A stretch of DNA of 62,907 bases, filler included, from Polymyxa betae A26-41 (taxonomy: Eukaryota > Protista > Endomyxa: Phytomyxea), in the NCBI GenBank assembly GCA_003693705.1. It is 7 parts of 7 records of this genome, joined end to end, with 100 filler letters (N's around TTAATTAATTAA, not from the genome) between each part and the next. Parts side by side here need not be neighbours in the genome. Positions count along the whole stretch, not along the records: positions 7,123 to 25,050 come from RBZT01000517.1; positions 25,151 to 32,951 come from RBZT01000227.1; 5 more parts are not named here. One strand, written 5' to 3'. This document shows, one piece after another, positions 3,087 through 55,629 of the stretch; within the stretch, counting starts at the first letter, position 1; the number at the start of each line of letters is the position of its first letter. The notes beneath the pieces were generated by a model. It had not been told where the DNA came from and searched no databases. It saw nothing but the letters and a program-made list of their open reading frames with translations. The position numbers were made by a program, and so were the translations under genes.

Positions 3087-4864
3087 ATGAAGATCGCAGC
3101 CATGCTCGTGGCCGTACTGGTCCTGGCCAGCGCCGCCGCCACCGAGGACCCCGAGTCGCATTTCGACCGTCTCCCGGACCCACTCGTCGAGAGGATTCTG
3201 GCCCTGGGGCCGACCGACTTCGGCCAGTACGACCATGCGGGTGTGTCGGAGATTCGGCGTCCTGTCCAAGACCCCGATATCGGATCTGTATGATGGACGC
3301 TTTCCGGACTCGGAATTACTCCGACGGATCACCGCGGCGATTAACTTTCATTGAAGAGAAGTCGATTCCGTCTCAGGTCATCACTCCGCAGCTGACCGTG
3401 TCCCTGTACGACCGTCTTCTTAGCAGTGAGCATTTGACGGACACCGAGAAAGCCGAAGGATTGAAGGTCCTTATTGACAAGTTCGATGCGGACATGATCA
3501 CTGGACTTTTATCCTCCTCTAATTCGGATCTGAAATCGGAACCATTTCTGAAATTATTCCTGAATTATAAACAGCAGCTGGATACGGAGAGACCATTCAC
3601 GCTTCCTGCTAAGGTCATCGAATCGCTTCACCATGCTGAGCTTGAAGACAATAATTACGGATTCTCCGACGATATCGTGTCCGAGGTTCGAGGTCGATAT
3701 CCTCCTCCATTCGATCGGTTCTTCCCACAAGGACCTGGTTTAGGCCCGTTGAGGAGATTCCAGAGCAATTCGCATCCATTGGCGAATGCGTCTGTCCTCC
3801 TGGATCTGCTCTATCAAGGAGTCCGCTTCAACATCAAGGATTTTTACCATTCTGTTTTTGTCTCACCGAATCAAGTTCCGGACATCATTCCTCTATTACG
3901 CTCACAGAATCTTGACCTTCTTGATATCATGTTCACCTTCTTCAAACATAAATACCTGGCTCAAGTTCGGGCGATGTTCCTCATTCCCATGGTGCGGCGT
4001 CTAATTCTCACTAATTCTGATTATTTCCTTGAAAACCTCCTCAAGGTCTATCGCCTTCCATCAGCTTGGCCTGAATTCCCCATAGAACTACTCCGATTCA
4101 TCGCAGAGATGCCGTTCTTCCCGCAGATCGCGAATTCCTCCGATCAGTATGGATGTACTCTATTGAGTGTCTTAGTATATAGATGGAAGAGGTCTGATAT
4201 TACAGATGATCCATGGTATCAAGCTCTATTTGATATCATTCGGCCACATACAGTGGATTTCGATTCCAGATTCGTCCGAATGGCTGCGCAGGCTCATGAA
4301 CTTCATCGTCTGGAACGTCTCGGTCTTCCGCCTCCTCTCTCATTCCCTCGTTATCCGGACTATCCCTACACCCCCATTAAGGATATGGAACAGATTCCCA
4401 ATTGGAATTTTGTTCCAATTGAGAGCGGACAATCTCCTGAACTTCCTCATTGTGCGGATATCGTCCCTGCTCATGTCGAGTCCAATTTCGATCGTCTTCC
4501 GGACGATGTTGTTCGAGTTATTGTGAACTCTGATCTGAGTCTTGTCCGAATCTTTCCGCAATTGTGTCGCAGATTCCGCCATCTGTCCATGCCTTCCTCA
4601 ATGCGGAAACTGGTTCCGGATCATAAGGCTGCTCCAGACGTTAAAATCAAAATCAGCTTATTATACAGAATACAAAACCACTTTGATTTCATTATTAGGG
4701 AATACGCCATGTTTTACTACACAAAAATAGGATTTCGGGAGGGAAAAGTGGGACGCCTTTTCATACGTAACATTATTCTACTCACAACACCCTCAATATG
4801 GATCAATTATCAGCCATTGCTAAAGATTTCGAAATGCGATAAGCCCACGACGAACCAATTTTAA
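3087..4864 (+). pseudogene. Secreted protein with N- and C-terminal F-box-like motifs; two frameshifts at about 3220-3330
   Basis: ATG 3087 gives signal peptide MKIAAMLVAVLVLASAAA then HFDRLPDPLVERIL. The next frame gives MRVCRRFGVLSK. The long ORF ends with NFDRLPDDVVRVIV...LCRRFRHLS. Weak ankyrin-like SDQYGCTLLSVLV. Confidence 0.65.
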
Positions 4865-7022: not shown

Positions 7023-7122
7023 NNNNNNNNNNNNNNNNNNNNNNNNNNNNNNNNNNNNNNNNNNNNTTAATTAATTAANNNNNNNNNNNNNNNNNNNNNN
7101 NNNNNNNNNNNNNNNNNNNNNN
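7023..7122. other. Artificial contig linker N-TTAATTAATTAA-N (also 25051-25150, 32952-33051, 38193-38292, 41006-41105, 54526-54625); N gap 38568-38722
   Basis: Identical six-frame-stop linker flanked by N runs. Confidence 0.95.
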
Positions 7123-16179: not shown

Positions 16180-18750
16180 TGTCCCAATATGATGGGCTCG
16201 ATTGATAACGAGATGCCAGACCCTTCTGTTTTCATTAAGGTGTCAGAGCGCGATCCGAATGTGTGAACCGAATCAGATAAAGACAGCTATTTCTTTAATG
16301 TTATGTCAATGATTTCCTTCATCAATTGGTGTTCCTTATCCATATGGTCTTTTATGTTCGACACCAGATACGATGTAGCGATCTTGTTGAAGCTGTTCGA
16401 TGCTCAAGTGTGGATTTCCCTCCCGCTGCTCTTACAAATACATTCTATCATTGGAAGAGATAAATATGGTGGTTTTCCTTTCAAGGGTAACCCTTCCACT
16501 AGGATATACATACAGTCAATATTGCTGATGAATTGTTAGGTAAATTATTGAACGAGAGGCTACGGGACAGCAGATCCTGAACAAATGGAGAGATTTGCAA
16601 CATCAAGAAAATTCTTTGTTTTGCAGCATGGGGTTAATTATACAGATAGATCCAAACTACGATATGGCCACTTGATGATTGTCAGTTTCCTTCTCATGTT
16701 ACTTTTGTTCTTGTTTTTTCCAATTTGGCCCTTTAGGTGACTGATCAGGATCAAGAATGATTCTCATATTAAGGGTTTACTAATCAACTTCCTTCACAGT
16801 TTCTGGCCCTCACTTCTGCGAATGAATTCGTTTTTGTCTCAGTTTATTACACCTATTGTTACGGTCACCAAAGGTCGTCTCCCGACATGTGCCAGTGTTA
16901 TTGCTCGTAGAGAAATTTTGGAAATTGGTCGAGTTCGTTTTTCGCGATCCCGCAATATCAAGAATGACGCCAGCAATACCCCTCAGGATGGAAAATCAAG
17001 TACTTCAAAGGTCTGGGTAATTCAACGAGCAAGGACGCGAAATACTATTTCAGCGCAAATGATAAGGTCCAGATGTTTGCTTAATTGTCCCGTTTTTCGT
17101 GAAATATGCTTTTAGCACCAAGTATCGTTTAAATGGGATTCATCGATGGATGGCAAGCTCAATGACAATGCTATCGGGAAGGTAACATCACTTGACGTAT
17201 CGTTTTCGTCCTGATAAGCATTTGTTTAAGGCATTTAGCAAGAAGCGAGTCGAAGACCGGAAGACCTGGCTGTCAAATGTTCAGGATGGGACCTTTATTG
17301 ATTACCGTCGTGATCAGGAATTCGTTGACCGTGAGCCTGTTCTGTTCTCTCGATCAGACAACGTATGTTCTATTCCCTCGTTGCTTGACGGTTTGAAACC
17401 CGGTCAACGTAAATTTATTTACAGTTGCTCAAAAAGAAAGTATGACAATTTGAAAAAGTTTTCATTGAGCTAAGCTGTGAAAAGATTGACCGGCGAGATT
17501 AATGTTGCCCAGCTTAGCCGAACATGGCGAGGTTTGCGTTTGTCCTGCTGCTGTGTCCCCATATATTTATTAATGATAGTGTAGCAATCTCTTACCGCGA
17601 CCATTATCAACTATTGTGGCAGTAACAATATTTAACTTGTTGCTTCCGATCGGGTCAAACAATCTTTCCATTCTGGCAGAGAAAAACAAACGCTGCCAAA
17701 GCCGAGCGAAACGCAGAAATAATTGGATCCATATAGGAAAGGAATTAGAATGTGGATAGCATGGGGACGAGCAGGCTGATATCGTGACGAGAGCGAATGA
17801 TGCAATGACACCCGAATGGAGCTCAGATGCAATTAATGAAGTACAGATGGTCTTAATAGAGGCAAATACAGACAAATGGATCACTAAGTAGACGGAGATT
17901 ATCATCATGACTCTGTTATTTGGCCTATCCTGGCATAACGCAAGGCCAGAATTCAGATGGCTGTTAGCAACACCACGACCTAGCCATTGTGATCAGCGTC
18001 CAGTCCGGATCGAGTGGCGCTGGGCCCACCGACTAACCCGATTGTGTGAAAATGAATGATAACTGCAAACAGAGAATCTGCGAACTCGGGTCAGCTCGTC
18101 GGTCAGATCATCCAGGCACTGGTTTCATCCATTCAGTCATAGGAATGTGTTGTCTCTCATGGTTACGTACAAAGGAATTCAATTTACCCTTCAATTAATT
18201 TACAGGAAACCGCGGTCATAATCGTGGCGATGGAGCGGCAGCCGTTGTCCTGTTGTTATCCTGATCAAGGTCCCGCATGCTCTCCTGTTTCAGCATCTTC
18301 ATCAGCTCGTTGAGTATCAGGTTCCTGTCCCTATCATACAGTCGGATTGGCACCACGCCTTGAAAATTGATGAGATCAACTCGCAGGAGTAATATAGAAG
18401 AACTTGAGCTTCAATAAACCAGTAGCTAAAACGAATCAAAGTGTTTACTTATTTCTTCAGCCGTTTTCCTTGCTTCACGTCATCGCTGGCCTGGAATCTG
18501 GACACAAATCGCAGTTCGGCTTCGTAACGGTCCCGCTTCGACAGCCTGCACATAATGTTCAGAGCGAAAAGGACTGGAAACCGCTCGAAGTAAACTTGTA
18601 AAGCTGATTATATTTTTAGAAGTCAGATTGCAGAGACGAACTTGTAAGAAACATGAGCGAGTTAAAGAAACCTAACTTTCGAGACATTACTGGCAGCGTA
18701 TGGATCGGTAAGGGACAGCGGATGGAGGTTAGCAAAACGCATCCAATTTA
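16180..18750 (+). pseudogene. TOP2: Decayed DNA topoisomerase II with introns, stops and frameshifts
   Basis: Collinear motifs RYGHLMI, TDQD..SHIKGLLINFLHSFWPSLL, FITPIV, WKIKYFKGLG, AFSKKRVEDRKTWL, SIPSLLDGLKPGQRK, NLLLPIG. Boundaries approximate. Confidence 0.85.
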
Positions 18751-20041: not shown

Positions 20042-21377
20042 ATTCGAAGCGCTCAAATCATGATTTCGAGACGAAGACCATCGCTGACCATTCATCGAAT
20101 ACTGCAGATTCTCCCTATTTGGAATCACGTATGTTCTTCTCTATGGCAATTGTGATGTATACTGAAAGATTTGCAGAAGCGGAGAAAAACTAAAATACCT
20201 TCTAATTGTCATGATCTGCTTACGTTCCGATTTTTTTAGAATCCAATGATGTCGTACGTTTAGCAAGGTTTATACAATTAATATTACGGATCCTGCATCA
20301 GGAGTGCAAGATGCATCAGGAGTGCAAGAACATATATTATATCCCATAAAGATGAAATCATTTTTTTATGGAGGGGTTCTTGGAAGACTGCCAGAGTATC
20401 TGCGAGGAGAATTCGGTAGCGATCGATGATGAGAAGACGATCACGATCACGATATGAGGCCATTTGCTTAGGAGATAGCACCGCCTGTTGATACTTGATG
20501 AAAATCAACGAACTAGTCATGTCCAATCCAATGCCATCCAGAATTGACGGAGAGACCTAAACCCTAATAGGGTCATGGCAACCATTCCTGACTACAGCCT
20601 CGGTGGCGGGATGGGACCTCATCAAGAGGGCAACGGGCTGCAATTCTCCCTCCACTGCCACCTTAGAAGTGACCGCCGAAGACACGTGTCGTGCCCCAGC
20701 TATAGGAAGGCCGCGCCTCTTCTAAGGCCGCGTCCTAAGATTGCAGCTCCTGTTTTTTGTGCTTGCCGTTACAGCACAGTGGTCATTTGCCACGCTACCT
20801 TTTTTCTTTCATTCTATTTTGAATACATCGGAAGGTTTATTCCGCGCAGACTTTCTGTGTGTTAAATCTAGGATCATCTCATCTTTTTTTGAGCGAGTCC
20901 CTGACCTTCCGAACGAATGGCCAGCCAGGATTCCGTCGTTCAAAATGGACATGATGCCTCACAGCAGAATGCTCCCATGCCCAACGTCCAGGACGTGCGG
21001 GCCAGTATCTCACGCCGCATAGAGATTCTTCAACGATCAATGGCTACACACAGCGCAGAACTGGAGTCATTGTACAACCAGGATTACGAATCCATGTCTT
21101 CAACCAACAGACGGAACGTGGACAATCGCATCTATGCCCTCATCGATTTGATCAAGTCGACTGAAGTCCGAATCGATGCGGCTCGGAGGAGCTTCTTAGC
21201 TCTGGCTCCGATTCAAATACAGGCTCCAGCTCCGGCGCCTGTATCCGCACCCTCTCAACCAGAACACGCAGCTTCCGTACATCTGGCCAGACAAGCGCGG
21301 CTGCCGTCCGGTCTACCCAAGTTCAAACGACCAACAGCCCAGGATCCGAGCGCCGCCGAGGACTTTCTCTCGGAGCT

Positions 21378-22672
21378 GGTGCAGGTCGGCCCCGTGGCTC
21401 CGGTGCTCTCAATCCTCAGGGTATCCCCGCTCTTAACAAACAATCGAAGTACTGGCTCGTCACTATACATTACGACGACGAATCGCACGTCGATCGTGTA
21501 ACAAAATTCCTCAACCTGTTCGATAACGATTGGGTAATATACGCTACTTTACGAACGCCTATAAATGTATTAATTGATCAACGTTTTTAGGTCTCGTTCG
21601 TTGTGTTTGGGCGTGAGCTGACCCAGTCGCAAGGGCCGCATCTGCAATGTTATTTGGAGTTGACGGGTGGTAAGCGCGGCCGCACTGTCAAGGCTGCGCT
21701 TGGCATAGGCGATGCGCACTTCGACGTGGTCACCAACGTCTTGCCGTGCGGCAAGAAGACAACCTACAAACACTCTCGTTGGAACTGTTTTTGTTATTGT
21801 ACCAAAGGCTCCGAAGAGCAGTCGCAAGAGGGTCCGAACCCGTCTTGGGACGGCGAGGAACGGGGGGTTCGTCCCCCCAGGCCCGCTCACAAGACGTCGT
21901 TTAAGGAGCTCGCCCAGGATGCGTTCGCTTCGTGTCGCCGTGGTGACTGGGATTCAATCGACGCTTCAATGCGGATGCGGCATGCGAATGCGCTGTTGAT
22001 TGATCGTACCCAGTTCATGGGTCGTCGTCAGGTGTCCGTGTTACCCGATAACTCACGGGATCGTAATGTCTGGATTGTCGGCCCCGGCGACATCGGGAAA
22101 AGTTATTTTGTTTGGGAAGCTTTTCGCCCCACCGATGTTTTTCTCAAGGATTCGAACAAGTGGTGGAGCGGTTATAACGACGAACCCGTCACGTTCATTG
22201 AAGAGATCGAGCCTGACGACATCAAGTCTTCGTGGATTAAAAAATGGGCCGACCTCTATCCGTTTATGGGCCAGCCGAAGCAGGAGTACTGGAAAATTCG
22301 TCCAAGTCACACTATCGTGACGTCGAATTATAGTATTGACGAATGCTACACCGACGATCGTCAACGTCTGTCGATTCACCGGCGATTTACTGAAGTCGAT
22401 CTTCGGGAGCGGTGCGCGGGCACGGCTCAGTTCTGCGCCTGCGTCCGCTGTGGTCGCCTTGAGGATGTCCGGTCTCGTGCTGCCGCCAAATCAAGGCTGC
22501 TGTAGACCGGTGGCAGTTGACTGTCGGCGATGACTGGTGTTATGTTCCTGTCCGTGTCCGCCCCATCGAGGATGTGGCCTCGACTCAAGTGTCGATCGAC
22601 GAAGACGTTGTCGCTGCCCGGGAACTTGCTGCCCTTGCGGTGAATTCGCGCCCTAATTCTCCAGCCATGTAA
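21378..22672 (+). CDS. rep: CRESS-type replication initiator Rep (HUH endonuclease + SF3 helicase); 5' truncated, intron 21534-21590, probable frameshift near 22488
   Basis: Motif I KYWLVTIH, motif II PHLQCY, motif III YCTK, Walker A GPGDIGKS, KWWSGY, Walker B IEEI, motif C IVTSN, Arg finger IHRRF. AATAAA at 22675. Confidence 0.92.
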
Positions 22673-22778
22673 CAAATAAACCGGTGCATCATCGCGCCCT
22701 TTTCGCGCGCCTTATAATCCACTGTTGTTAGCGTTTCATGTGTAGCAGCAGCTGTGCAGCTCGAGTCGTACTGCACCA

Positions 22779-23560
22779 ATGGCTGTTCGTTTTGTTCGCC
22801 GGGTAATGGTTCATTTCTATATGCTGATCGAATTGACTGCATCAAATGGAGACATCGTTTCGATTAACGATTCCGGACGACGCGAATTCACCGTCCAGGT
22901 CTTCGACGCCTTCGACGTCCAAAGATGCGTTCCGCTCAACACATATAGGTATGTTATCCACTGGAGATGTTCTCCACTGGATATCAACTCTTTAGTTTAT
23001 TTGTTCTCCACTGGAGGTTCCTTTTAATAACTCCACTGGATATCAACTCTTTAGTTTATTTGTTCTCCACTGGAGGTGTCATTTAATAACTCCACTGGAT
23101 ATTAACTTTTAATAGTGGAAAGCCCTTCGTCGACTACTTCGATCTCGTCGATGACGCAAACGCCTCCGATCGACAGCGACGACATGCGCCGGTGGCTGCT
23201 GGAGGATCTGGAGGATTGCCACTCGGATCTCCAGTCTGTGACTCATTCTCTGATGGTCCACGATCGCGAACTAGGCAGTCGTCTAATTCCGGTTCTGGAG
23301 CTGTTGGAAACGACGATTACTGCCCTGCGCCTGTATCCGGATCGTGCTTTTGGCTCTGTAAGGAGGCCGCGGGAGGAAGCGAATCGAGGCTGGCCGGGGC
23401 ACCCGCTTTAGCGGGTCGGGCATGCCTCATGAGCGAACCTGGCGGCCGCCGCCCCTCGTACGACGTTCTTATGCCTAAATCCCTTCACCAATTTTATTGG
23501 GCCGGCCGAAGGCCGTCAGGCCCGGCGCGTAAGCGCCTCGGCCTGTTACTGCCTGCTTGA
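22779..23560 (+). CDS. Second ORF of the Rep element, predicted spliced (22779-22948 + 23116-23560, about 204 aa), unknown function
   Basis: TATAA at about 22713; AG|GTATG donor and TTTTAATAG acceptor join two open frames (...VPLNTYSGKPFVDYFDLVDD...). Confidence 0.5.
22957..23099. repeat. Six TCCACTGGA interrupted palindromes in a 59-bp tandem repeat
   Basis: Copies at 22957, 22973, 23007, 23032, 23066 and 23091. Confidence 0.9.
23151..23411 (+). CDS. Possible overprinted helical protein in the Rep element
   Basis: MTQTPPIDSDDMRRWLLEDLEDCHSDLQSVTHSL... has amphipathic periodicity and overlaps ORF2 in another frame. Confidence 0.35.
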   Translation: MTQTPPIDSDDMRRWLLEDLEDCHSDLQSVTHSLMVHDRELGSRLIPVLELLETTITALRLYPDRAFGSVRRPREEANRGWPGHPL

Positions 23561-25339
23561 GGTCGTCCGTGGGGTATGCCAACCCGACCAACGCTCCGCT
23601 ATCCCCACCGGCGGTGCGCAGCCCCCGGTAGTATTGGAGCGATACCCGGAGGCTCTCGCAGCCTGTTGTGAGCGCTTGGAAGGCGACTGGGTCTTCGAAA
23701 ATCTTGTCGGAAAAGGCCTCACCTGGTCTGAAACCCGGGAATCGTTCTTCAAGCATTTTGTTAGCGACGATATCCGCTTCTACTTCGAAAACGATCTAAT
23801 TCACTGCCAACGGTTTCAAGGAGAGTCCATAATGGCTTTCGCGGACCGGTATCTTGGACGGATGAAAAGGGCTAATAGGAGTCCGGATCAAGTTCATGAA
23901 TTCACCACCGAGTTCATCGGCCAGCTGCCTCGTTCAGCAGTTAACTGGCTATATGGAATCAAGGCCGCGAATCCCGAGAAGATCAACTCTGTTCGTCAAA
24001 TCGTCAATGCCTTGACTTTATTTTGTTCAGCGGATCGTTCCTCGGCAAAGAACGTTCATCAGGCTGCATCGCACAGCAATAACACGAGCGCAGCCCCATC
24101 CTCGTCGTCGTCATCTCAATCACGCAGCACTTCCCGGAACTCCTCTCGCCAGCAACTATACTGCTCCGCTCACGGCCACTGCGGTCACAAGTCCGAGGAC
24201 TGCAGAAAACTCCAATCGGAAAAGGCTACCAAAAACTCCGTCGCAGCCAGCAACAGTAACACATCTACTCAGTCTGGGGCCAGTACGTCCACCGGACCGA
24301 AATGTCATCGATGTCAGAAACATGGACATGTCGCTCGGACCTGTCGCGCACCTAATCCCGTTGATGATCCCGATTCCGGCAAAACGTCGTCTGCGTCCTC
24401 GAATGTTGCTGCTAATCACTGTATTCAGGGCGCCTATATTGAGGAGATTGACGAGTCCGACCCCGTGTTTACCAACGACTCCGTGGATGGTTTCCATAAA
24501 CTATTCGATAATGTGGAGTCAATTCACAGCTCCGAATCCGAGTCTCATCCAGCAGTCGCCAATCGTATCGACTATTCAACTGCCATTTTCACAACAATTT
24601 CCCTCGACGGCAAAGAGGTGCAGGCTTACGTCGATACCGGCGCTTCCAACTCTACCATTTCTAAAGATTTATTCGGCACTTTCTCTGAGCGGTCGCGCTC
24701 GTCTTATCAGAACCCTACGAAGGGTCAGCTTATCTCGCTCGGTGTGAAGGGCCAGTACGCCCCGCGACCGGGCTGGGCACAGGTTCCGGTTCGCTACGGC
24801 CACAGTGACTTTACGTTTCAGTTCGACATAGGTGAACCCCCGGAAGGTGTTGCCGTCATAATGGGGCGTGATCTGCAGCGTCGTCTCGGCATCGGTGTCT
24901 GCGGCCTCCAGCTGCCGCGCTCCGTGGCGTCTTCGGTGGAACCGGCTCCTGATGATGTGTCTCCGCCACTGACGGACAATTTCCGGGATGGTCCGCCTCA
25001 CCCCTTGGCAACTCATCCGAGGCTTCTGAGCGCTATTCAGCGTAATCAATNNNNNNNNNNNNNNNNNNNNNNNNNNNNNNNNNNNNNNNNNNNNTTAATT
25101 AATTAANNNNNNNNNNNNNNNNNNNNNNNNNNNNNNNNNNNNNNNNNNNNACAACCCAAGTCGCTCGAGAACCCCGACGCGCAGAATTACTATACTGTGA
25201 AACCAGTGGGTGATGGCCTACAGCCACGGTGGATGAAAACTCCGCCGCGGAGTTTACCAAGGTATGAGAGCGCCCTAATAGACTCGAGTATTTAAAGATC
25301 AATTTTCACTTCTAATACATCTCATTCTGTTATTGATTG

Positions 25340-28231
25340 TGTTCGGCTCACATCGTTCTGAATCGTAGCCGCTCACCGAGCGAGAAAACCAACAACATAT
25401 CTTCCAGTAGAAAAACTGCGTCAGTTTCTGCGTACTCGCTTGGTACCCAAGGTGTCCACAATTGCTTCCAGCATGCGAACGGAATTATGACTTTTTTCTT
25501 GTCCGTTATTAATAAACCATTTTCATTATAGTTTTGGCCGCTCTTAGCTGGCAGCCATCTCTTCTGTATTTTCTTTATTTCTTCTATAGTAGGCCATATG
25601 AACTCAGGGCTTTGTAATGGCCTTATCCTCTGTTCGTCTGGGATCGTTATCGCTGGCACTCTACGGACTATCATTTGCGTAGCGCTTGTTTTTCATCGTC
25701 GACTGGTTTCGCTCCCCATCTGGTCATCAAGTCGACCCATATGCTGTCTTCTCCTTTGATATGCTCGATTTGATAATGAAATCGCTGCATATAAATGGCC
25801 CATCTTTGTAACTTCTGTGCTGTTATCTTTGACACATTCGTAGGTGAAACAATCTGTATGAGATTTTTATGATCACAGAACAGCTTGAATGGTCGTTTCA
25901 TCTGTAATAAATAATCCAACTTCTCCATCGTATCTTTAATGGCGAATCCTTCTTTCTCGGCAACGCTTCAGTTCATTTCGCATTTATTGAACCGGTGACC
26001 TACGAAACCTATTGGTTCGTGCCTCTGTAATGATACAGGTTTATTTATATCATCTCTTGAATCTGAGTTACCATTCCGGATGTACTTTACACGTTGGCAT
26101 CAGTGAACATGCACTGCAGCATCTCTTCTCTTGGATACGCTAATTTCACGTTGTTAGCTTTAGCCGTCTTCAGTTGCTCGAAAGCGAGAGCATGTTGCGG
26201 GCTCCATCCATATTTAGAAAGTTTAACTTGCCTCGCAACGCTTTTGTTCCTCGATGGTTGATCCTTCATAGTACTAAGTTCAAAGATATCCTGTAAACTA
26301 TGTACTTTCTTATTGTATTCAGGGATCGACCTGCTCATCCATTGTGTAGCCATCAGAAACTGCTGTAGGTCTCTTGCCGTTTTCAATAGTGTCTTAGAAA
26401 TTTACTGTCCTCTGTGTTGTACCTCCGATTTGGATATCTACACGGTCTTGCGTTTGGTACCAGGCGGGTGACAAATGGTGTAACCTTTGCTGGGGCATCG
26501 GGACCTAGTGTTATGCGCCATTCATCTCGATACTTTTGAACAAACCGGTTTAACTTTCCCGTCCATTCTTCTGGTAAGCCGTTTCGTCTAGCGGCTTCTA
26601 TCAAATTATTCAAGCCGTCTTCGATTTCTTCTACGTCTGATGGAGCTTTAATCACCATTTCTTCCAAGCCGTCGAAATCATGGCGTTCTTTTTCTTCTTT
26701 ATTATCTACTTCTTCTGTGACGTTATTATCATATATCTTGGCCCGTTTCTCGCGTCGAGCGCAGTTTTTGGCTCGATTCCGATTTCCTCTAGTAGGCCAC
26801 CCCCGAGTATAATTTCTTCACTGGGAACGTCCCATATCAGGCATTTTCGCTGTCTCGTGATAATTTCACCGCCCTTTGTGCGCAGCCCGATATCGAGTGT
26901 TACGCACTCCGTGGAGTCAACCTCTGTTCTAGTATCACCTAGTCGAAGGCGAATCTGCTCTCTCAGCCGCTCCTTCTTGATTGACACGCCGTTCCGCATC
27001 GCAATCTGTGCTATCCTTAACGGGATCAACGACATGTCCGTGGCTCCACTATCATGTATACCAGGGACGTACATGCCCTCACTAACCTTCACATCTATTT
27101 GCCGGGTTGCGTCTGGGTTTCTACCAATTCTACAGATCATCAAGTAGTTGAAATTCTTCTTAAATGTATTATCGTGCTTCTTCAACAACGTCTGCACCTC
27201 CTCCTTGGAGAGACCTTCTGGGCACTTGAACGCTGCATGGCCGTATTTACCACAGTTAAAATTCTTCAATTGTGACCGGTCTGATTTGTCGCCTTTCGCC
27301 TTCTTCATGTCTCCGGGCTTCTTGTCATCATTTCGCCCGCGCTTACGCATACTTTTCTTCTTGTCATCTTCTTCATCGTTTTTCAGGGTGTGCGTCTCTT
27401 CATGATTTATAGCCTTTTCACGCAATAATGCCATAGAGGCGACAGGCTTTTTTGCAAACTTCGGCTCCAATCTCATCTTATTTTTTATAATTGTCTTCAA
27501 TTCTTTGGCTCGATTCCGTTGGTTAAGAACCGAACTTTCATCTTTTTTCCATCTTCATCCTCAAACAGATGATTCCATCCATTTTGCTTGAGAATTTTAT
27601 TACATTGTACATAGAGATCCGTGACCCACAGGCCTGGAGAATCGATCTTCAAATCCATCTTCAACTTCTTCATCTTTTTCTCAATTTGAGAATCCTGCGA
27701 GCGGTCATCCCTCAAAGCTTGGTTAATCCAAGCTTCGATATCGTCTTCTGTGACATTCTCGACTTCGACGAATATGTCACACTCGCAAATGGTTTCAAAA
27801 ACCGTCGTCTCGATCATCGAGACCAAAGATCGTGAATTACCTGCGGTATTAACATCCCGAAAGTTGCGGATGTACAGATCCTTACTCTCAACGAATCTTA
27901 GGATCGCCTTGAGATCCAGCTTCAGTAGTAAGGGGGCCCGATTAGTCTCAACCACGGCAAGATTGCCGGAGGTTTCGTTTCGGTGACGGTCATCTGTCAT
28001 CTGGCGGCCATGATTAGCCACAATTTCTTCATTGTTGGGCAGACTGCCGTCATTGCCAACATCATCATCATCATCAGTAGTAACCGGCGAAGGGGGACAG
28101 AGTTCATCTTCTTCGACTTCGACAGAGCCTCGTCTTGTCACTCCGTCTTCTACTGTCGGAGATTCGCAATCGTAAACGATTTCGTCGTCATAAAGAGGCT
28201 CATCTTCAGATGTCGTCATCAGAGTAGCCAT
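25340..28231 (-). mobile_element. Degenerate Ty3/Gypsy retrotransposon (gag, knuckle, protease, deleted RT core, RNase H)
   Basis: CGKYGHAAFKC knuckle, HDSGA protease, LQQFL..W.S.SIPEY, FTDA, LFCDHKNL, KLQRWA, IEHIKGE; several frameshifts. Confidence 0.85.
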
Positions 28232-28629
28232 CTAACAAAAAGAATTCTTTGTAGCAATCCTCTCGATTCTACGATCAGATCCACAAGAATGAAGGTAAAA
28301 TCAACAAAATGATCTGTATTCAATTGCCAAAAAGCTCCAGGACCCAAATGCCGTCGCGGAGTCCGTACGGAGTCTGGGACGAAGTTCTTAGCGCAGCCTG
28401 ATCATAGCTTGAAAATCTTGTTGTTTTCTTGATATCTTTTGATAAACTATACCAACTTGCTACACTGCGAGATCCGCTTCCTGGCATAAGTCCTGGTTTA
28501 AGAAAATGTGGCGCCGAGGATAGGAGGGAACCGGACCAATGCAAGATTTATTTTATCATCGTAAGGGTACGGTAATTGATATTAAGATCATCATAAAGAA
28601 AATGAATAAGAATGAAAATAACAAATCTA

Positions 28630-29219
28630 CCGTTTTCCCCCGCACATAAGGCATATGCCTTATTCAAGGGTGGATTTTTTTTGCCATTCTCGCTTACGGT
28701 AGTCTATCCCTCGAAGATAAGGCAAATGCCCTGTATTCAAGGTAAGGTAAAGTATGCCTTCTATTCAAGGGTTCTAAATTCCATTGTTTGCGAGAGTCCG
28801 TGTGCTTAATATTCAAGGTTTTTGACATTTGTTAACACTTTGCAGCGCAACGCAAGCTCTTTATTCAGATGTATCTGGAAGACGCGCCGTCTAAATTTTT
28901 TATGGCCCACTTACCTCATTAATATACGACATCCATGTCAGACACTGCCGGACGTCCAATCACGCCGTCTCCTTCAACAGGATCCGCATTATACTTCTAT
29001 TTCAATTTTTGCTCGGTGTTCTGAACCTCAATATCAATAAAAATGAGCGGTACTAACGTTGAAAACTCGATTCATCTTATTCAGTTTCCTAAACCTCGAA
29101 TAATGGGACGAGAATCCAATCCCTTGAATAGTGCGCACACCACGCAGCTTTCGAATAGAAGGCCCATGTGCCTTCTACTCAAATACAAGGCACTGTGCAT
29201 TATGTGCGGGGGAAAACGG
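28630..29219. mobile_element. MITE copy 2, inverted relative to 11836-12427
   Basis: Same TIRs and reverse-complement internal sequence. Confidence 0.85.
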
Positions 29220-29779
29220 GAGGGTTTGACCCTAGTTAAAATATCAGCGCATGACAGGCCTCTCCCGTTTTTCTGCCGGCTTTGTTTATTATGGTTTGGT
29301 TGTCAACGGGGAATTTCGATTTTCGGCGCCCGACTCTTGGGCACAGCCAGAGCTCGAGCTCATTGTTGAGTAACAAGAGCTCTCCTGACCACCTCGGATT
29401 CCGTCAGGTAGCCTGATTCAGCGAGATGAGCACTTGGGATGAGTAATGTCATCGCTTTCTTAGCGGCCTGTTCATGTAAGATTTCAGTAAAATTGTGCAT
29501 TTTTTTATTTTCTCAGAATCTGGCAGTAACTGCGCACTGGCAGTTCCTGCGCAGTTAGCTAAAATTCCTTGGTTTTGCCTAGCTCCCTTGGCCGTCAACG
29601 GCAGCTCTCTGCTTCGTCACTACGCTCCTGGCCAAGTGCGCTAATTGATGTACTGCAGTCCGCTTGGCCAGAATAGCCGAGGAAGGGTAAAAAGCGCAAC
29701 CCGTTGTGCTGGGCCTCTCCCATTTTTCCGTAAACTATTATCGGTTATTCTGACCGCATTTGCTGTACGCGCTGGTTCT

Positions 29780-31200
29780 AAGATGGTTTATTGTTGTGGA
29801 TCGCGCGATCGCTCATACATCATTATGCAAGCCGCGAGCTTCTCATAGTTGTTCGTGCGATTGTAAATTTGGTAACAGGACGATCGCCAGCGTCCAAGCG
29901 CTTGGATCAGATGGACCTCCACGCCCATCTCAGCCAATTCCGTGGCGCCGTCAATGCGCAAGCTATGGCCTGCATAGCGCGAATCATCGATTTCCACTGC
30001 CTTCACGTTTTTGGTTAACCATTCGGTGAACTTCCGTATGATTGGCTTCCCATTCATATCCTGAAATAATGGCTGTGTAGCGTCCGATTGGTCCTCGCAT
30101 CAACAATTTGCTGAAGATAGCGGGACGCACATGCATCATTACTCGATATGGGGTGTAAAACCTTTTCGTGACGGAACTTGTTTGTCTTACTGCTATCTCG
30201 ATTAGTTCGGGGCGATTTTGAAGCATGATTGGGTCTTCGAGAACACACCGGTCGCGGATCATATCGAGGAATTCGTTCGCTCGAGCTGTCATCTCATCTG
30301 AGCCGGCGGTCCATGACCTGATTTGCCAACGCGGCTGAGCACATCCGCCGTTGATTACGTTTGCTGAGACAATGTCTCTGGAATGGTCTAATATTTCTGA
30401 AGCTGCTGTATTGCTGCTAGTTGTGGGCGCTGATAGGGCCCTGATTGCCCGCCTTTGATGATTCGTTGATGGGCTCAGTGGAATCGAGCGTCTCTTTGTC
30501 AAGATTCTTCTTCTGCAGAATTGTTCAAGCCCGCCGCTGGTTTGTCGCACGCCCACCGCGTGCCTATAAAAGTAAACCTACGTAATGCTAGGTTTTGAAG
30601 GTCGCTGATAACTAAACCGACTGCCGAATAAAGATTTTTAGTGGAAATATTTCGCTAAGTCTCATGATGTGGACGGCCAACCATCACTAATGCTCACCAT
30701 GAGACCTGGACATCGGGCCATAAGCTGTGAAACATCTTCATTTCGTTACGGGATAACGCGTCCGCAATGTCATTCTCAACACCGGGAATGTGCTGGCGTA
30801 TTATTCGACATCGGAATTCCAGTTCAAGGAAGATTTCGCGCAGGATTTTAGCCACACCTGCGTCAGTCCTACTACGTCTAGCAACCATGGCATCTACGTT
30901 TGAGAGGTTGTCAGTGCGTATAATAATGGTTTCCCAATCCAGGCCTCGCCCCATAACTCGAGGGCACGCTTTGTAGCCCAAAGTTCCTTAACGCAGTTAT
31001 GGTGTTGCTGCTTTTGGAGGGTCCAGCTGGCCGCTATTAAATAGTCTACGATTGACCAACGCACAGCAAACTGATCAACTCCGTGCGCAGCTTTTTTTGA
31101 CCTACAAATTGACCTACTTTCTTGAAAATGACCTAATGTTGAGGCCTCCCTCAACATAAGCTTTCAATACATTCGCGAGTCAAACATCCGCTGTCTTTCA
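29780..31200 (-). mobile_element. Degenerate DIRS/Ngaro-type tyrosine recombinase retrotransposon (RNase H + YR)
   Basis: YAGHSLRIDGATEL...LGRWRSSCYQIY and SKTNK (YR); KELWA, IRTDN, HIPGVENDIADALSR (RNase H). Confidence 0.85.
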
Positions 31201-32924: not shown

Positions 32925-33173
32925 TAATCAAGCTGGTAAAGATTCATTCGTNNNNNNNNNNNNNNNNNNNNNNNNNNNNNNNNNNNNNNNNNNNNTTAAT
33001 TAATTAANNNNNNNNNNNNNNNNNNNNNNNNNNNNNNNNNNNNNNNNNNNNTCAGCCACATTGCTGTCATTGGAGTCAACCATCTTCGAGTTCTTAGAGA
33101 GCTGGGACTCTTAATCTAATTGTGTCAGTCGATTGAGAGTGTTTTAAGGAGTGTCGTTTATTCGATCGACAGC

Positions 33174-35950: not shown

Positions 35951-37597
35951 TGTAAGTGGGAACGGGGCCGCGACTCATCCGAACTCGAATCCGCAGGCAA
36001 CTGCTTACATCTCCGAAATGCGAGATAAAAATGTTCCAGTGGAACAAGGTTTCAACTCAGTCGCAGGGGTGTTCCGCCTCAGTGGAGTGCAGCCCCTCCG
36101 GGGGCTGCGCAGAATATTCCAAACGTGCGGGATCGTTACGTCCAACGCTCCCACCCGATTCCGACTTGGGGAATGGCATAATGCGCGTCGCCAACTTTTT
36201 GAAAGTAATAGGAGGTAGGGATTTCGTCGACATATCAGCAATCATATCAGTAGTACAAGTGTAAGGAACTTCAACCTTGCCTTCTTCAATTGTCTGGCGG
36301 ATGAAATGGTACTTAATCTCGAAGTGCTTGGTTCTTTTTGAAGTCGTTCCATTCGCTAACGCCATCGCCCCCTTATTGTCCTCATAAATTACCGTGGGAG
36401 CTGACTGCTTAAATCCGAGATCTTGTAAAAGTCCGCGAAGCCAGATGGCTTCTTGTGCCGCAGTCGCCAGCGACACATATTCGGCTTCAGTCGTCGAAAG
36501 CGCAACACACTTCTGCTTAAGACTTCCCCAAATGACTGGGCCAGAGCTCAGCATGAGTACGAAACCACTTGTAGACTTGCGGTCCGAGATGTCTCCGGCG
36601 TAGTCCGCGTCCGCATATCCGACCAGCTGAAGATTTCCCTTGCGGAACCCAATACCTACGGACTTTGTTCCCTCTATGTAACGAAGGATCCGCTTGATAG
36701 CTTGAACGTGACTCGGTCCTGGGTTGCTTGTGAATCTTGAGAGAATGCTAACTCCGAACATAATGTCTGGTCGCGTTCCTAGGGCCAGGTACATGCGCGA
36801 GCCGATGGCCTCTGCGTACGGCTAAACTTCAGGTTCTCCTTCATGTCGTTCGAGAACAACTCCGGATGCTAGTGGAGTATTGGTCGGTCGACAGTTACTC
36901 ATTCCGTAACGTGCTAAAATAGAATCAATGTAGGCCTCTTGGGTCAGTGTGATCGACCCATCGACAGAACTCCGAGTGACCTTGATGCCCAACACATACT
37001 CTAAATCTCCCACCGGCTTCATGGAGTAGCGCGCTCTCAGTGATGTTTCCAATTCTTGCAATGCATGTCGAGAAGTAGAGGCCGCGACCATGTCGTCAAC
37101 GTAAATCGCCACGATTGTCAGCGTCGTTCGGTCTCGGCGCACATAAACACATCGGTCATAGTTTGAATTTTGAATTCCGCAGGTAGGTAAGTGCTGATCG
37201 ATTTGTTGCCACCAGACTCTTCCGGCCTGCTTCAATCCGTAGATTGCTCTTCGTAGCTTGCACACTAGCCGTCGTCGACCGTCGGGCTCTTCGAAACCTT
37301 CGGGGTGCTCCAGATACAATTCCTCTTTCAGCTCTCCATAAAGACAAGCGCTGTCAATGTCCATCTGCTTTATGGCCAGGTTCATCTTCGCCGCAATCGC
37401 GATCACGATTCGCAATGAGCACAACGAAACAACCGGTGAAAACGTTTCGTCAAAATCCACGTCGGGCTGCTGCGTAAAGCCGCGAGCCACGTATCGGGCT
37501 TTTCTGCGCACAATAACTCCGTCCGCGTTCCGTTTCGCCTTGAAGCACCATTTGCCACTGATAACGTTACGGTCATGTGGCGCTGTGACTAAAGTCC
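35951..37597 (-). mobile_element. Copia retrotransposon 3' part: RT, RNase H and 3' LTR (about 35951-36147)
   Basis: KARYVARGF, QMDIDSA, IYGLKQAGR, IYVDDM, YADADYAG, TEAEY, TKHFEIKYH; purine tract before the LTR. Confidence 0.92.
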
Positions 37598-38192
37598 TGT
37601 TAAAGACAGAAACAGGTAGCTATAGCAATGGAATCAGGGGAACAGGGTTAGCAGGAGCTGACGACGAGAAGACAAGAGACTAGGGACGTGATTGGTACAC
37701 TCACGAAACAGATCTGGCGATCTGGCCGTGGAAGACGTGTTTATGTTGGATCAATAAGTCCGTGAACTTTGCACTACGTAACATTACCCCCTCCTTTAGA
37801 ATTCGCTCTCAGTAGAGGCCCGGGTTTGTGTGGGTATCGAGCATGGAAGTTGGTGATGGCTTGACGCAGGGCAGGAGAATTGTCAGCGAGTCCTCGTGCC
37901 GGTTCCCATGATCTCTCCGACGGTGGATAACCTACCCAATCGACAAGGTATTGCAGTTGGCGACGGTGCATTCTGGAGTCCAGGACGTCCTTGACTGCGT
38001 AGAAGGGCTCGGGCGACTCCTCAGGTATCCAGAGAGGCGACGTGTTAGGATCGAGTAAAAAGTCCCCTTTTATTGGTTAGATAAGCGGTGCGATGACTCG
38101 GGAGCAGAGGGTAGGACGCGGGGGACCGGTGTCCTGCAACGGAGCGACGTCAGGGAGTCCTCGGAGGCGGAGCGGCGGGGCACGGAGTGGAG
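37598..38192 (-). mobile_element. Chromovirus (Gypsy) 3' end: chromodomain, PPT and LTR 37598-37783
   Basis: [19 protein letters not shown]; PPT AAAGGAGGGGG; LTR bounded by TGTTA...TAACA. Confidence 0.88.
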
Positions 38193-38292
38193 NNNNNNNN
38201 NNNNNNNNNNNNNNNNNNNNNNNNNNNNNNNNNNNNTTAATTAATTAANNNNNNNNNNNNNNNNNNNNNNNNNNNNNNNNNNNNNNNNNNNN

Positions 38293-38567: not shown

Positions 38568-38873
38568 NNNNNNNNNNNNNNNNNNNNNNNNNNNNNNNNN
38601 NNNNNNNNNNNNNNNNNNNNNNNNNNNNNNNNNNNNNNNNNNNNNNNNNNNNNNNNNNNNNNNNNNNNNNNNNNNNNNNNNNNNNNNNNNNNNNNNNNNN
38701 NNNNNNNNNNNNNNNNNNNNNNTAAAACATCTTTATGCATGTTAGAGCATCTCCACCGCGTGGAGTCTATTCTAAGGTCTATTCGAGATTTCTGCGCCAC
38801 GGAGTTAAAATAGACCAAGTTTATATAGATCGCCGCACCGCGCGCGCGTTCTATTGTACATTCAAATATACAA

Positions 38874-40210
38874 ATGGATCCGATAATTGGGGAATGGTTT
38901 GAGCGAGTGCGACGGGATGCTAGCTTGGATGATGATCTGGTTGAGGCCCGGATGTTCTTCAGTTTGAAACGGAAGGCTCCCGACTCTCCTGTTCACAGAG
39001 GATCGCGTCCTGGCAAAGAACCGAATACAGAACGTGATTTTGAGGACGGGTTCCAGCGAATCTTCAAAGATTATTTCGCAGAGAATCCGGTTTTCAACTC
39101 AAGAGTGTTTCGGAGGCGATTCCGGATGCGCCGTGAGCTTTTTCTTCGAATCATGGATGGTGTTAGTACCCAGGATCCTTGGTTTGAGCAGAAAACCGAT
39201 GCTCTCGGAAAGATAGGCCTTTATCCAGTCCAGAAAATGGTCGCTGCAATCAGACTTTTAGCTTATGGTTCGAGCTACGATATGGTCGATGAGTATATCA
39301 GAATCAGCGAGTCTTCTACCAGCGAATGTTTGCAGCATTTCTGCTCAGCTGTAGAAGCCAGATTTGATGCAGAGTACTTGCGCTCACCAACATCTGATGA
39401 TTTGAAACGCATTTTGAAAGAAAACTCTGACCGAGGGTTCCCAGGAATGATAGGTTCCATCGATTGCTATAATTGGAAATGGGAAAATTGTCCTAAAGCA
39501 TGGCATGGCTCCTTTCGAGGCATCAAAGGAACTTCCATTGTCCTTGAAGCAGCAGTATCTCGCGACCTATGGTTCTGGCATGCATTCTTCGGAATGCCGG
39601 GTAGTATGAACGATATCAATGTTCTACAACGATCACCTCTGCTGCATTCAATCATAACAGGGACAATGCCTTCAATCAGCTACGAGATCAACGAAAATCG
39701 CTACGAGAATCCGTACTGGCTTGCAGATGGTATCTATCCCAACTGGCCGTCTTCATGAAATCTATCCCTGATCCCCAAGGCGCTGCAAGACAGTATTTTG
39801 CGAGGGAGCAAGAAGGCTGCCGAAAAGATGTGGAGCGAGCATTCGGTGTTCTTCAAAAACGCTTTGCTATTGTCAGAAACCCAGCACGAATGTGGGACCA
39901 GGAAAGAATGGCCTCCGTCATGCGAACCTGCATCATTCTTCACAATATGATTGTGGAGGACCAGAGAAAGGCACCGGTAGAGGGTGACGATGGTTATGAG
40001 ACAGGCAAGCCTCGTGAAGATCGCCGTCGTCGCAATCGCCAACGGATCTCTCTACCTATTAAGGTTAGGGAGACAAGCTTCGAAGATCTGCCTGCCGCAT
40101 CCTTGTCAGCAAGAGTAGGTCGTATACGAGAAACTTGCGATTCTGCTACGTATTTCCAGTTACAGTCTGACCTGATCGAGCACCTGTGGAAATCAGCCGG
40201 AAATTTATGA
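38874..40210 (+). CDS. PIF/Harbinger DDE transposase with one frameshift at about 39750
   Basis: FRRRFRM, GSIDC, NDINVL, LADGIYP, RKDVERAFGVL, CIILHNMIVED. Confidence 0.92.
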
Positions 40211-40939
40211 ATGAATACCCATTTCCTCGGTTTGCTTTTTCAGCTTAGCCAGCTCTATCCTACGTTTGAGCTCGTGGAACTCTCGCGCAGTGTCGTCCAG
40301 GGCAGAAAGGTTCACTGAAAACAATACCAATCGGATCTGCTCTTCGATCAGGTCATTACGACGTCGGGACTCAAGTACGTAAGCCCGTTGAACTTCTACA
40401 CAGTCATCATCATCGTCGCCATCCTTCTTGTAAGCCATCAGTTTCGCCTTTTTTGTTCCAATAGGTCTCCTTTGGGACCGACCTTCCGGAGCCTCCTCAC
40501 ATACATCTTGATCCTCAGGCCGCATTCGCTTACAATGCATCGCCTTTGGAGTCAAGCCCTGCTCAAACTTCGGAACCTGCTGTCGAAAATATTCCCATAT
40601 AGAGCGAAATTTGAAACCAGTTTTTTCAACTTCCTGAAAAATTCGGAATGCTTCATTTATATAATAATCTTCTTGCTCTCCCGACTTCGGCTGAGCCTTG
40701 GCCGTTGCAAGATATTCCGCAAATTTGGAGCATGATGCCTGAATCTCCTTCCATCGGTTACACAGCGCGTCTGGAGTTCGATTGCTTCCAGGGGCGAACA
40801 GCAAAAACTGCTGGAGAACTCGATTATAGAATTTGGCGCTTTTTTGATCAGCGCCTACGATTGGGTCATGGCTAACCTGCACGACAGAGCGAGCGAGGAA
40901 CATGTCCTCATCCGAGGTCCAGCCTTTGCCGCGGCCCAT
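40205..40939 (-). CDS. PIF/Harbinger ORF2 Myb/SANT-like DNA-binding protein
   Basis: WTSDEDMFLARS..VSHDPIVGADQK, RPIGTKKAK. Confidence 0.88.
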   Translation of the reverse strand: MGRGKGWTSDEDMFLARSVVQVSHDPIVGADQKSAKFYNRVLQQFLLFAPGSNRTPDALCNRWKEIQASCSKFAEYLATAKAQPKSGEQEDYYINEAFRIFQEVEKTGFKFRSIWEYFRQQVPKFEQGLTPKAMHCKRMRPEDQDVCEEAPEGRSQRRPIGTKKAKLMAYKKDGDDDDDCVEVQRAYVLESRRRNDLIEEQIRLVLFSVNLSALDDTAREFHELKRRIELAKLKKQTEEMGIHS

Positions 40940-41980
40940 TGGTTCAGTTCGTGACGAAATGACCCAAAACTGTCAAGACTTGACGCCAACATTGGAATAC
41001 GCGACNNNNNNNNNNNNNNNNNNNNNNNNNNNNNNNNNNNNNNNNNNNNTTAATTAATTAANNNNNNNNNNNNNNNNNNNNNNNNNNNNNNNNNNNNNNN
41101 NNNNNGCTGCGCCGGCGGTTCCGACAATATCTTTATACAATGAGACACATAGCATTTTTGACCAAGCAGGTATCACAGTATGGCAATCAACCCCAACGTA
41201 GTGAATGAAAACGACATCTCCACTGTTATCATTGTAAAACAGCATAAATCAGCCCAATATAATGCAACTTATCTTCGACACAAACAGAATTCATCACTTG
41301 TTCTGTTTTTTATGAAAATATTGATATTTGAGGGCTATGCCTCATTAAACAGTCTAACCAAGATAAGACCGAATATACAAGAAAATAAGAACAAGGGATA
41401 TCTCCAGTTATTGAAAGGTATACTTAAACGACCTTAATGCTATGCCAAAAAAAATAATCGAATATCTAGAAGAGCCAGGACGCATTCATATAGACGTGAT
41501 CGAGTGGTTTGGGCACGAAACCAACAACAAGATAAGTATCAGTAAGTATTCGTATATTATTATTTTTAATGAAGAGCAAGATCCTGATAATCTGGATTCT
41601 AAGACGGTGAATTGATTGTCACATTTCAGAAGTTTTTCTTATATTTGTCCTGAAAAACCTAGAGAGGAATCGATTGCTGTTGATAGCTCACGGAATAGAT
41701 CTCGTTGGGTAGAAACATCAAATTCGATGCAGAATGGGCTGGGTAGAGTGGTTCACCTATTTGAGTCAAATACTAAGAGAGTAGCAATTGAAAGGCGTCA
41801 CAGTCACGAGATGCATCCAAGGAGTACCAATGTCACGTGATCGCTCCTATCGACCCGATCGTGCTTCAGCTGACCTTCTGCATCCTCTGATACAAATTAC
41901 TCTGCTATTAGTCCAGCTCTTGAGTACTTCCAACTCGTAGCTTCTATCAGCAATGTATTACTGCCATATTATGTTAATTA

Positions 41981-54020: not shown

Positions 54021-55555
54021 GATGTTGATAAGAAGGGTGATAATGACGATAAGAGCGACAATTAACTCTGCGTAATCCTCACGCACCTCACCTATTAATA
54101 TTATGCGACCGAAGTGTGCAAGAGGGTTCACTCTTAGCAAGTTTATTGTGCATGAAGATCCAGCAGGTTAGTAGCAGATTATTTAGGCAGTGTCGTGCTG
54201 GACCTGCCAGGCTGACTTTTAGCTAGCAACAGCAGATAATAAAATTTATCTGTAAAGTATTCCTGTTTGCATTCCCAAGATATAGTATTTAGCATGAATA
54301 GCGATAGGAACGAAATCTTCGAAAATGACCTGAAAGTTTCTGAAAATTTTCAACAGTATTTCCCAGCGCCCACTACGTGCTACGGCCGAGCTAAGCTCGA
54401 AAGCCGCGGCAGTTCGTGATGGCGATAAAAGACAGCAGATGAGTCGCCATGAAGTGCGGATGCTGCGACTCCACTCGACCAGTTCTATAAGCCCAACGTT
54501 ATCGACATGTAATAATCCTTTTTCGNNNNNNNNNNNNNNNNNNNNNNNNNNNNNNNNNNNNNNNNNNNNTTAATTAATTAANNNNNNNNNNNNNNNNNNN
54601 NNNNNNNNNNNNNNNNNNNNNNNNNGTACGGAAGAGGGTTGCGTCCGAGGCCGCGCAGAGGCCCCGCAGTCGGCAGCGCTATAGTATTTCGTGTTTTCCC
54701 ATGCATTTCTCATTTCTTCTATGTCCCATACAAAAAAAATTCGAATCACAGCTCTTGGAATTTACTTTTTTCGAAATTTTTTTTCGTAACTTTCTTCTAA
54801 ACGATGAGATCTGTAGAATTACGAGATAATAATTTTGGTTGGAACCCTTTGGGAGGCCTCATTAGACCCCGACAATTCCCCATACAAATGTTGTCGGTTT
54901 AAGACTGCCCGCACTGTACGCACATTTTCTATCTCTCTGGAGGCAGAGTTTCCAGATGAGCAAGGAGTGAATCCGGGTCAATCTGCTCACCCATTGGGCA
55001 AGAGATCACAGCAGACAGCTTTCGAACAGCTGATGCGCAAATTCGTCATTCTAAACGTAGGGGACTCGACCCGCTGCTGTTTATTGGGATTTGACCCTCT
55101 CGATAATTGCCAACTTGGAAGGGGTAGATCAGCTGCGCTTGATGTTCTGCAGCGTGTGTCAGATCTAACTAAGTGATCTGAGCAAAAAACAGTCATAATT
55201 AGTGCCTTTTCATCCCCTGAAGATCCCAACAGGCCATCCTTGGTTGATCTCATAGAAAGATTTCCATACTGAATCTGGGTGCCGAATATATTTCATTTGT
55301 CCAGATTTGAGTTTCTTCTCTTAAGAACCCTATTGAATATCTTAACCAATAGAACTAAGCATTTTACAAGGGAATCTCTATGAAAAGTTTATGTGCAGAG
55401 CATGGCAATGAGAAGCTATGGTTGTTTTGATCGCAAGCGCACGATATTCGAATCACTGACTAGGAGTCATTCGAAAGCCTCTCACGCTGTAATGGTTCGA
55501 GACCAGCGTCGTAAAATTTGATGTTGTACATGAGCTTGAGAATCTCATCGATAAC

Positions 55556-55629
55556 GTCCGGATGGTGTAGTTGGTTATCACACCTGTCTAACACACAGGA
55601 GGTCTCCAGTTCGAACCTGGGTCGGGACA
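55556..55629 (+). tRNA. tRNA-Val (anticodon AAC)
   Basis: Cloverleaf with anticodon arm CCTGT-CTAACAC-ACAGG, GTTCGAA T loop and downstream T-run terminator; one G:G mismatch in the acceptor stem. Confidence 0.93.

Follow-up and report, generated by a model that had tools for sequence, protein, structure and literature searches.

We analysed a 62,907-nt stretch of DNA from Polymyxa betae A26-41 (GCA_003693705.1; the whole stretch is called the window below), in which a 2260-bp element (21376-23635) interrupts the gag gene of a Gypsy-type retrotransposon. The element encodes a replication initiator protein (Rep) of the CRESS virus type (circular single-stranded DNA viruses that encode a Rep), and its right end is the heptamer TAGTATT, the 5' side of the predicted Rep nick site. 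Our preferred reading, held tentatively at a probability of about 45%, is that this is a 5'-truncated copy of a CRESS rolling-circle replicon that integrates occasionally through its Rep-nicked TAGTATT end, with no regular transposition. Copies of the element are few and others read through the nick site, and on these results we rank an occasionally integrating replicon ahead of a transposon and of an ordinary virus. With a filled site, empty allelic or paralogous sites and copies with an intact origin in hand, a route of CRESS entry into chromosomes can be read at base level, and the entry here appears to run via the Rep nick.

The insert in the Gypsy gag

The 5' part of the gag open reading frame (ORF) extends from 20917 to 21375, and the 3' part with the protease runs from 23634 to the contig end at 25050 (all features of the element and its target are on the + strand). 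The 3' part carries zinc knuckles and a DTG protease motif. Pfam matches of the flanks to zf-CCHC and Asp protease were weak and below the cut-off; with the gag-protease frames on both sides, they agree with an earlier note on this DNA, which named a Gypsy gag as the target. The interrupted ORF and the insert lie inside one N-free contig (7123-25050), which ends within the Gypsy element, past the protease.

Other copies were sought as Logan contigs in six of 14 listed runs (none listed as RNA). The region 20300-25050 was compared with runs X1, X2, X3, and X9, and the region 23400-23700 with X1 (13 records), X3 (4), X10 (2), and X7 (0). Logan contigs drop rare variants, so rare or divergent copies can be missed. 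An empty-site joint from 21375 to 23634, in which the 5' gag ORF continues, was present in two X1 contigs and in one X3 contig (1323 nt, covering 21099-24647). Between these two positions the empty sites carry 31 or 33 other letters, and the gag frame is kept by the 33-letter form. The empty sites are either alleles or paralogues. The insertion took the place of ∼33 bp of gag (about 11 codons), with no target duplication. Because of the 31-33 extra letters, the GGAGC found at both junctions is not a target duplication, as it had been taken to be: half of the repeat is gag-derived and the match is coincidental. The in-frame junction DFLSE/RYPEAL obtained by removing the insert, formerly regarded as a clean empty site, is a coincidence as well. 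The left edge is 21376 and not 21377. The heptamer TAGTATT (23629-23635) abuts gag directly, as the earlier note had stated; the empty gag shares its last TT, which leaves three possible placements for the right joint.

Both joints are crossed by X1 pieces with 0 differences, over 30 letters on the left and 30 + 28 letters on the right, just short of the bridging criterion of 31 letters. Depth in X1 was 219 and 227 at the two joints, compared with 214-218 in the unique interior. X3 had no cover on parts of the insert and X9 had none on most of gag, which is not proof of absence. The chance that one of two random ends would fall at the nick site was estimated at 0.1-0.24% (3-nt window, circle of 2.5-6.3 kb). 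The insert is real, and its end at the nick is unlikely to be due to chance.

The nick site and other copies of the element

The right end of this copy carries a 13-bp arm at 23590-23602, a small inner hairpin at 23607-23629 (about -6 kcal/mol, DNA parameters), and the heptamer. Contigs extending beyond 23635 showed two continuations only: gag (X1 only) and one read-through sequence (X1, X3, and X10). The read-through is 47-48 nt long and identical in the three runs over the 30 letters displayed. It begins with AT, and its letters 5-17, beginning 4 nt past the nick, match the 13-bp arm in reverse complement at 13 of 13 positions (by-eye comparison); the chance of such an inverted repeat is about 1e-5. 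Since the repeat lies inside the read-through, the read-through is element DNA and not host flank. Read from the sequence, the origin is TAGTATT^AT, with a predicted nick at the caret and a predicted loop of ∼37 nt that holds the small hairpin. It is a nonanucleotide-type origin in a stem-loop, with an enlarged, branched loop and a 13-bp closing repeat. Full copies had been expected to start with AC plus a GG-rich arm; the start found was AT, with an arm that pairs with 23590-23602.

The read-through copies are compatible with a circle, with tandem units, or with an integrated copy that is permuted. Read-through depth in X1 was ∼490 (by subtraction) vs. 227 at the gag joint; summed contig depth is not copy number, and the difference is only a hint of two read-through copies. 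In X1 the 3' region occurs in at least three sequence variants, and X3 contains a second Rep copy that is about 90% alike over 21779-22165. The element is a small family of divergent copies. The segment 21946-22673 was also present in run X9, which has a different organism label, at >99% identity and a depth of 2-4. The main test proposed in the earlier note was whether other copies stop at TAGTATT in unrelated flanks, and this expectation failed: in the X1, X3, and X10 contigs over the 3' end, the copy in gag was the only one seen to stop at the nick, and the other copies seen read through it. A rolling-circle transposon should leave dispersed copies with the same end in unrelated flanks; we found one nick-ended copy.

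The Rep, the downstream genes and their relatives

The remnant of Rep exon 1 (21376-21533) contains motif I (YWLVTIHY), and ∼24 N-terminal codons are gone: the intact relatives P0153 and P0155 are longer by about 24 N-terminal residues, which bears out the 5' truncation proposed earlier. A predicted phase-0 GT-AG intron of 57 nt (21534-21590; 30% GC) lies between motifs I and II. Its flanking peptides are contiguous in P0153. Exon 2 (21591-22505) encodes motif II (HLQ, ∼21639), motif III (YCTK, ∼21795, with one Tyr), the superfamily 3 (SF3) helicase motifs Walker A (GPGDIGKS, ∼22080), Walker B (FIEEI), and motif C (VTSN), the Arg finger (RRF), and a Cys cluster (RCxG..FCxCxRC). The C-terminal tail (22484-22671) is in another frame, and the frame break in this copy was located near 22480-22490. 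Beyond it the tail still resembles those of relatives, with 41% identity to the P0153 tail and a tblastx match to the metagenome contig L083.

The Rep gave a Pfam match to RNA_helicase (E = 4e-4), and its top Atlas rows were Cressdnaviricota Reps at 0.97. A profile of its clade matched four PDB sequences, all of them Reps (best 7lar_A, E = 2e-12). The motifs as read, Pfam, Atlas, and the PDB profile all agree with the earlier assignment of HUH motifs I-III, SF3 Walker A/B/C, and an Arg finger. The Rep is a CRESS-type HUH+SF3 protein in a 5'-truncated copy. No further Rep was found elsewhere in the window by tblastn, and on this result the sequence TAGTATTAC at 53835 was rejected as unrelated to the element.

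Among 1.84 billion representatives, three proteins scored under 1e-30 against the window Rep. Their cluster members and one further match were added, and we built a tree of 147 sequences (FastTree, midpoint root; proteins <250 aa and five near-duplicates were left out), in which the window Rep, P0003, P0153, P0155, and P0161 formed a clade on a long branch (support 1.0, stem 0.96). The four relatives all lack informative protein names. Identity was 41-45% in alignments including the window. The tree has almost no named tips: a virus name was attached to one of the 21 clusters looked up, and the nearest named Rep among these was that of Crucivirus-520 (QMW69014.1) at ∼32% identity. The introns of the Rep genes are apparently at differing positions across the clade, as read from proteins only. 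P0155 has an insert resembling a retained intron, P0154 an early stop, and P0161 a late start. Behind the SF3 Arg finger, the neighbouring Reps P0008, P0050, P0052, and P0127 also have a Cys/His cluster; judging from these residues, a zinc-binding tail common to the wider Rep group is possible.

In IMG/VR, scans with the window Rep, P0153, P0155, A4, P0050, A6, and P0003 as queries either found distant CRESS contigs only or had no match. The pattern CCCCCGGTAGTATT hit 82 stretches in IMG/VR, 0 of which had a Rep or DNA similarity to the insert. No relatives were found in GTDB genomes or in phage records. The metagenome scan returned five loci, and one of them, L083, belongs to the clade. Two distant, crucivirus-like contigs, L091 and L103, encode a Rep and a Viral_coat S-domain capsid.

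Downstream of the Rep, ORF2 exon 1 (22779-22948, 56 codons) is predicted to form a five-stranded beta sheet (model pLDDT 68) and has no family. A 59-nt tandem repeat (22972-23110) that contains CCACTGGA motifs enlarges the ORF2 intron (22949-23115). ORF3 (23151-23411, 86 codons) is a predicted helical hairpin (model pLDDT 79). An X2 contig lacked exactly the length of the ORF2 intron (joint 22938 to 23114, side 27), and it is either cDNA or intron-less DNA (the kind of run is not on record). The gene order Rep, ORF2 exon 1, intron, ORF3 was also found in L083, to which ORF2 exon 1 and ORF3 are 33 and 36% identical, respectively; each of the two scores was reached by 0 of 2000 shuffles. A long ORF2 exon-2 frame is not conserved, with 1282 of 2000 shuffles reaching its score. 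In the window (22779-23411) as in L083 (711-1234), ORF2 exon 1 is followed by a phase-2 donor, and further downstream a YAG acceptor lies in frame with ORF3. Given these candidate splice sites and the lack of a Met in the L083 ORF3 frame, ORF2 exon 1 and ORF3 may make up one alternatively spliced protein. The Rep clade with its conserved spliced accessory gene is apparently an undescribed lineage, defined here.

The scanned ORFs of the retained 2.26 kb insert contained no capsid family, and for this part the earlier statement that no capsid is recognisable holds. In L083 no capsid was present within 755 nt after the Rep match. ORF2 exon 1 had no usable Atlas match and no Foldseek match at E < 0.001, and the best VIA Z of its model, 6.7, corresponds to a generic beta sheet. 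The products of ORF2 exon 1 and ORF3 are both below capsid size, and neither matched a family. The element may nevertheless have had a capsid gene, because its 5' part is lost here and the contigs of relatives reach 4.1-6.3 kb.

Competing explanations, known systems and neighbouring DNA

A CRESS Rep nicks after TAGTATT, stays bound at the 5' end, and frees a 3'-OH. If the element is an occasionally integrating replicon, its Rep would nick TAGTATT^AT within the branched stem-loop closed by the 13-bp repeat, and we infer that the 3'-OH end so released is the end joined to gag here. The free end may have been joined at the common TT by host break repair or by stray Rep strand transfer. The 5' part of the element and the 33 bp of gag would have been lost at insertion or through one later deletion. 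By one route, the Rep would nick the target and then rejoin; by the other, host repair at a break would take up the nicked end via the common TT, with a 33-bp resection. The empty gag site offers -1T, -2T, and a -4C/+1G pair. Such a pair is cleaved by duck circovirus Rep about as well as its own site (PMC9973303), and Reps are described as promiscuous in PMC7826260. The product joint, however, is -4T/+1G, which is non-Watson-Crick, and rejoining in vitro in Mg2+ was described as largely confined to Watson-Crick pairs (PMC9973303). Rep-catalysed joining to gag is uncertain on this analysis. The earlier claim of a junction made by Rep and not by random capture is upheld as to the position of the end and left in doubt as to the catalysis. 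Introns of spliceosomal type at apparently different positions in the clade would suggest long residence of the element in eukaryotic nuclei, probably as a satellite- or plasmid-like replicon leaving few integrated copies.

Several points weigh against this reading. The element is joined to host DNA at only one known junction, which is supported by a single run, X1, possibly the source sample. No circle was observed, and the read-through could be the tandem junction of a linear transposon. The contig sequence of a divergent variant breaks off in a loose end at 23546, short of its terminus, and further nick-ended copies could be missed. The DNA from the nick to the Rep start is visible for 30 letters only, and a capsid gene may lie there. 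The contigs of relatives, at 4133, 4274, and 6283 bp, have space for a capsid, and a tombus-like capsid is encoded by L091 and L103, whose Reps are 32-35% identical.

An alternative that we consider unlikely is a genuine HUH+SF3 rolling-circle transposon with asymmetric terminal inverted repeats (TIRs) of the Helitron2 type, in which the read-through would represent joined ends, of tandem copies or of a circular intermediate, and the copy in gag would be a precise insertion that later lost its 5' end together with 33 bp of gag. Both losses would then be accounted for by one deletion. One arm of the 13-bp repeat is 33 nt from the 3' end and the other 4 nt from the putative 5' end, a hairpin lies between, the end is at TT, and the target is not duplicated. 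Helitron2 elements are described in PMC5148889 as having a 12-16 bp repeat located 20-40 bp from the end; their targets are of the TT type, and they occur as circles and as tandem insertions. This likeness to the ends of Helitron2/Helentron is, in our analysis, the best argument for a transposon. The target with -1T, -2T, and the -4C/+1G pair cleaved by a circovirus Rep (PMC9973303) would also suit it, and introns plus a conserved non-capsid gene suit nuclear residence. On the other hand, the distance from nick to arm is also in keeping with an ordinary CRESS origin whose loop is enlarged, and the non-Watson-Crick product joint is as awkward for a transposon. A 5' junction to host DNA was not found, the copies are few, and the nick-ended copy in gag is the only one in X1, X3, and X10. 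It seems unlikely that the element founds a third class of eukaryotic HUH transposons, with a CRESS-derived Rep+SF3 protein, the nick site as 3' terminus, repeats convergent with Helitron2, and a conserved spliced accessory gene instead of a capsid. Should more nick-ended copies exist, it would be a helicase-retaining link between CRESS viruses and transposons, of the kind hinted at by Replitrons. We found no description of a nick-ended Rep+SF3 transposon in the open-access literature searched.

Helitrons encode a Y2 Rep with an SF1B (PIF1-like) helicase, and Replitrons lack a helicase and carry short terminal direct repeats (PMC10288648). The element, in contrast, has a Y1 Rep (YCTK) with SF3. 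In comparison with Helitron2 it shows a 33-bp target loss, and dispersed fixed-end copies were not found in the examined runs. Like Replitrons, it has a Y1 HUQ Rep that is related to those of CRESS viruses and resides in a eukaryotic genome (PMC10288648), but it keeps the SF3 domain and the CRESS heptamer. The geminivirus-like transposon of Tuber melanosporum also has a CRESS Rep gene within a repeated genomic element; it is reported with its own transposase ORFs, 37-bp TIRs, and 42 copies (PMC3198968), whereas we saw none of these features here. Published work already covers the insertion of CRESS Reps into host genes and transposons, and their possible self-mobility (PMC3198968).

We give the same low weight to an ordinary endogenous CRESS virus, either crucivirus-like or a segment of a multipartite virus, with its capsid gene either in the missing 5' part or on a separate circle and with a nicked end captured by repair. 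The nearest named Rep is from a crucivirus, and relatives are found on contigs long enough for a virus of this group: cruciviruses measure 2.7-5.7 kb or more, have spliced Reps in 36 of 461 cases, and usually have NANTANTAN origins (PMC7468197). Rep-like inserts are known in host genes and transposons, as noted above. The element shares with Cressdnaviricota and Crucivirus-520 a Y1 HUQ endonuclease with an SF3 helicase and a TAGTATT-type origin, and the spliced Rep with some cruciviruses. However, its Rep is distant from every named Rep checked and falls outside them, in a long-branch clade that has a C-terminal Cys cluster; members of the five-Rep clade were absent from six IMG/VR protein scans with clade queries; and no downstream capsid was found in the window or L083. 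The conserved small spliced gene, the branched-loop origin, and a precise nick-site junction in a nuclear retrotransposon also set it apart from Cressdnaviricota. If a capsid is present after all, the clade would be a new virus lineage tied to a eukaryotic host.

For an occasionally integrating replicon, the closest parallels are Rep-driven replicons with no recognised capsid (here, in the retained part only). HthCRESSV1 is described as a capsid-less oomycete mitochondrial replicon with a Rep, a non-capsid ORF, and integrated relatives, placed in Repensiviricetes (PMC13499601). The copy analysed here lies instead in a nuclear retrotransposon. Alphasatellites are Rep-only and about 1.0-1.4 kb in size. 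The element, a unit of >2.3 kb with introns and a second conserved gene, is not of this type.

An assembly chimera, or a chance position of the insert end, is very improbable: both joints fall under the bridging criterion, no listed piece spans the entire stretch, and the window consists of contigs chained by N linkers, but the insert sits within one N-free contig, the X1 pieces over both joints are free of differences at even depth, and the chance of the end position is about 0.2%.

The spacers between the short contigs of the window (N44-linker-N44) are at 7023-7122, 25051-25150, 32952-33051, 38193-38292, 41006-41105, and 54526-54625. Upstream of the Gypsy element, 17186-17473 contains a fragment of a type II topoisomerase gene (TOPRIM_C, DNA_topoisoIV) with apparently broken frames. 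Other mobile DNA is present in 25350-31200, 36060-37619, and 38829-40972. By-eye readings in it include a second, broken Gypsy-like element and a tyrosine-recombinase-like retroelement; a Copia reverse transcriptase (RVT_2) and a Harbinger-like Plant_tran transposase opposite a NAM-associated ORF were found as well. A tRNA-Val(AAC) gene is located at 55556-55629.

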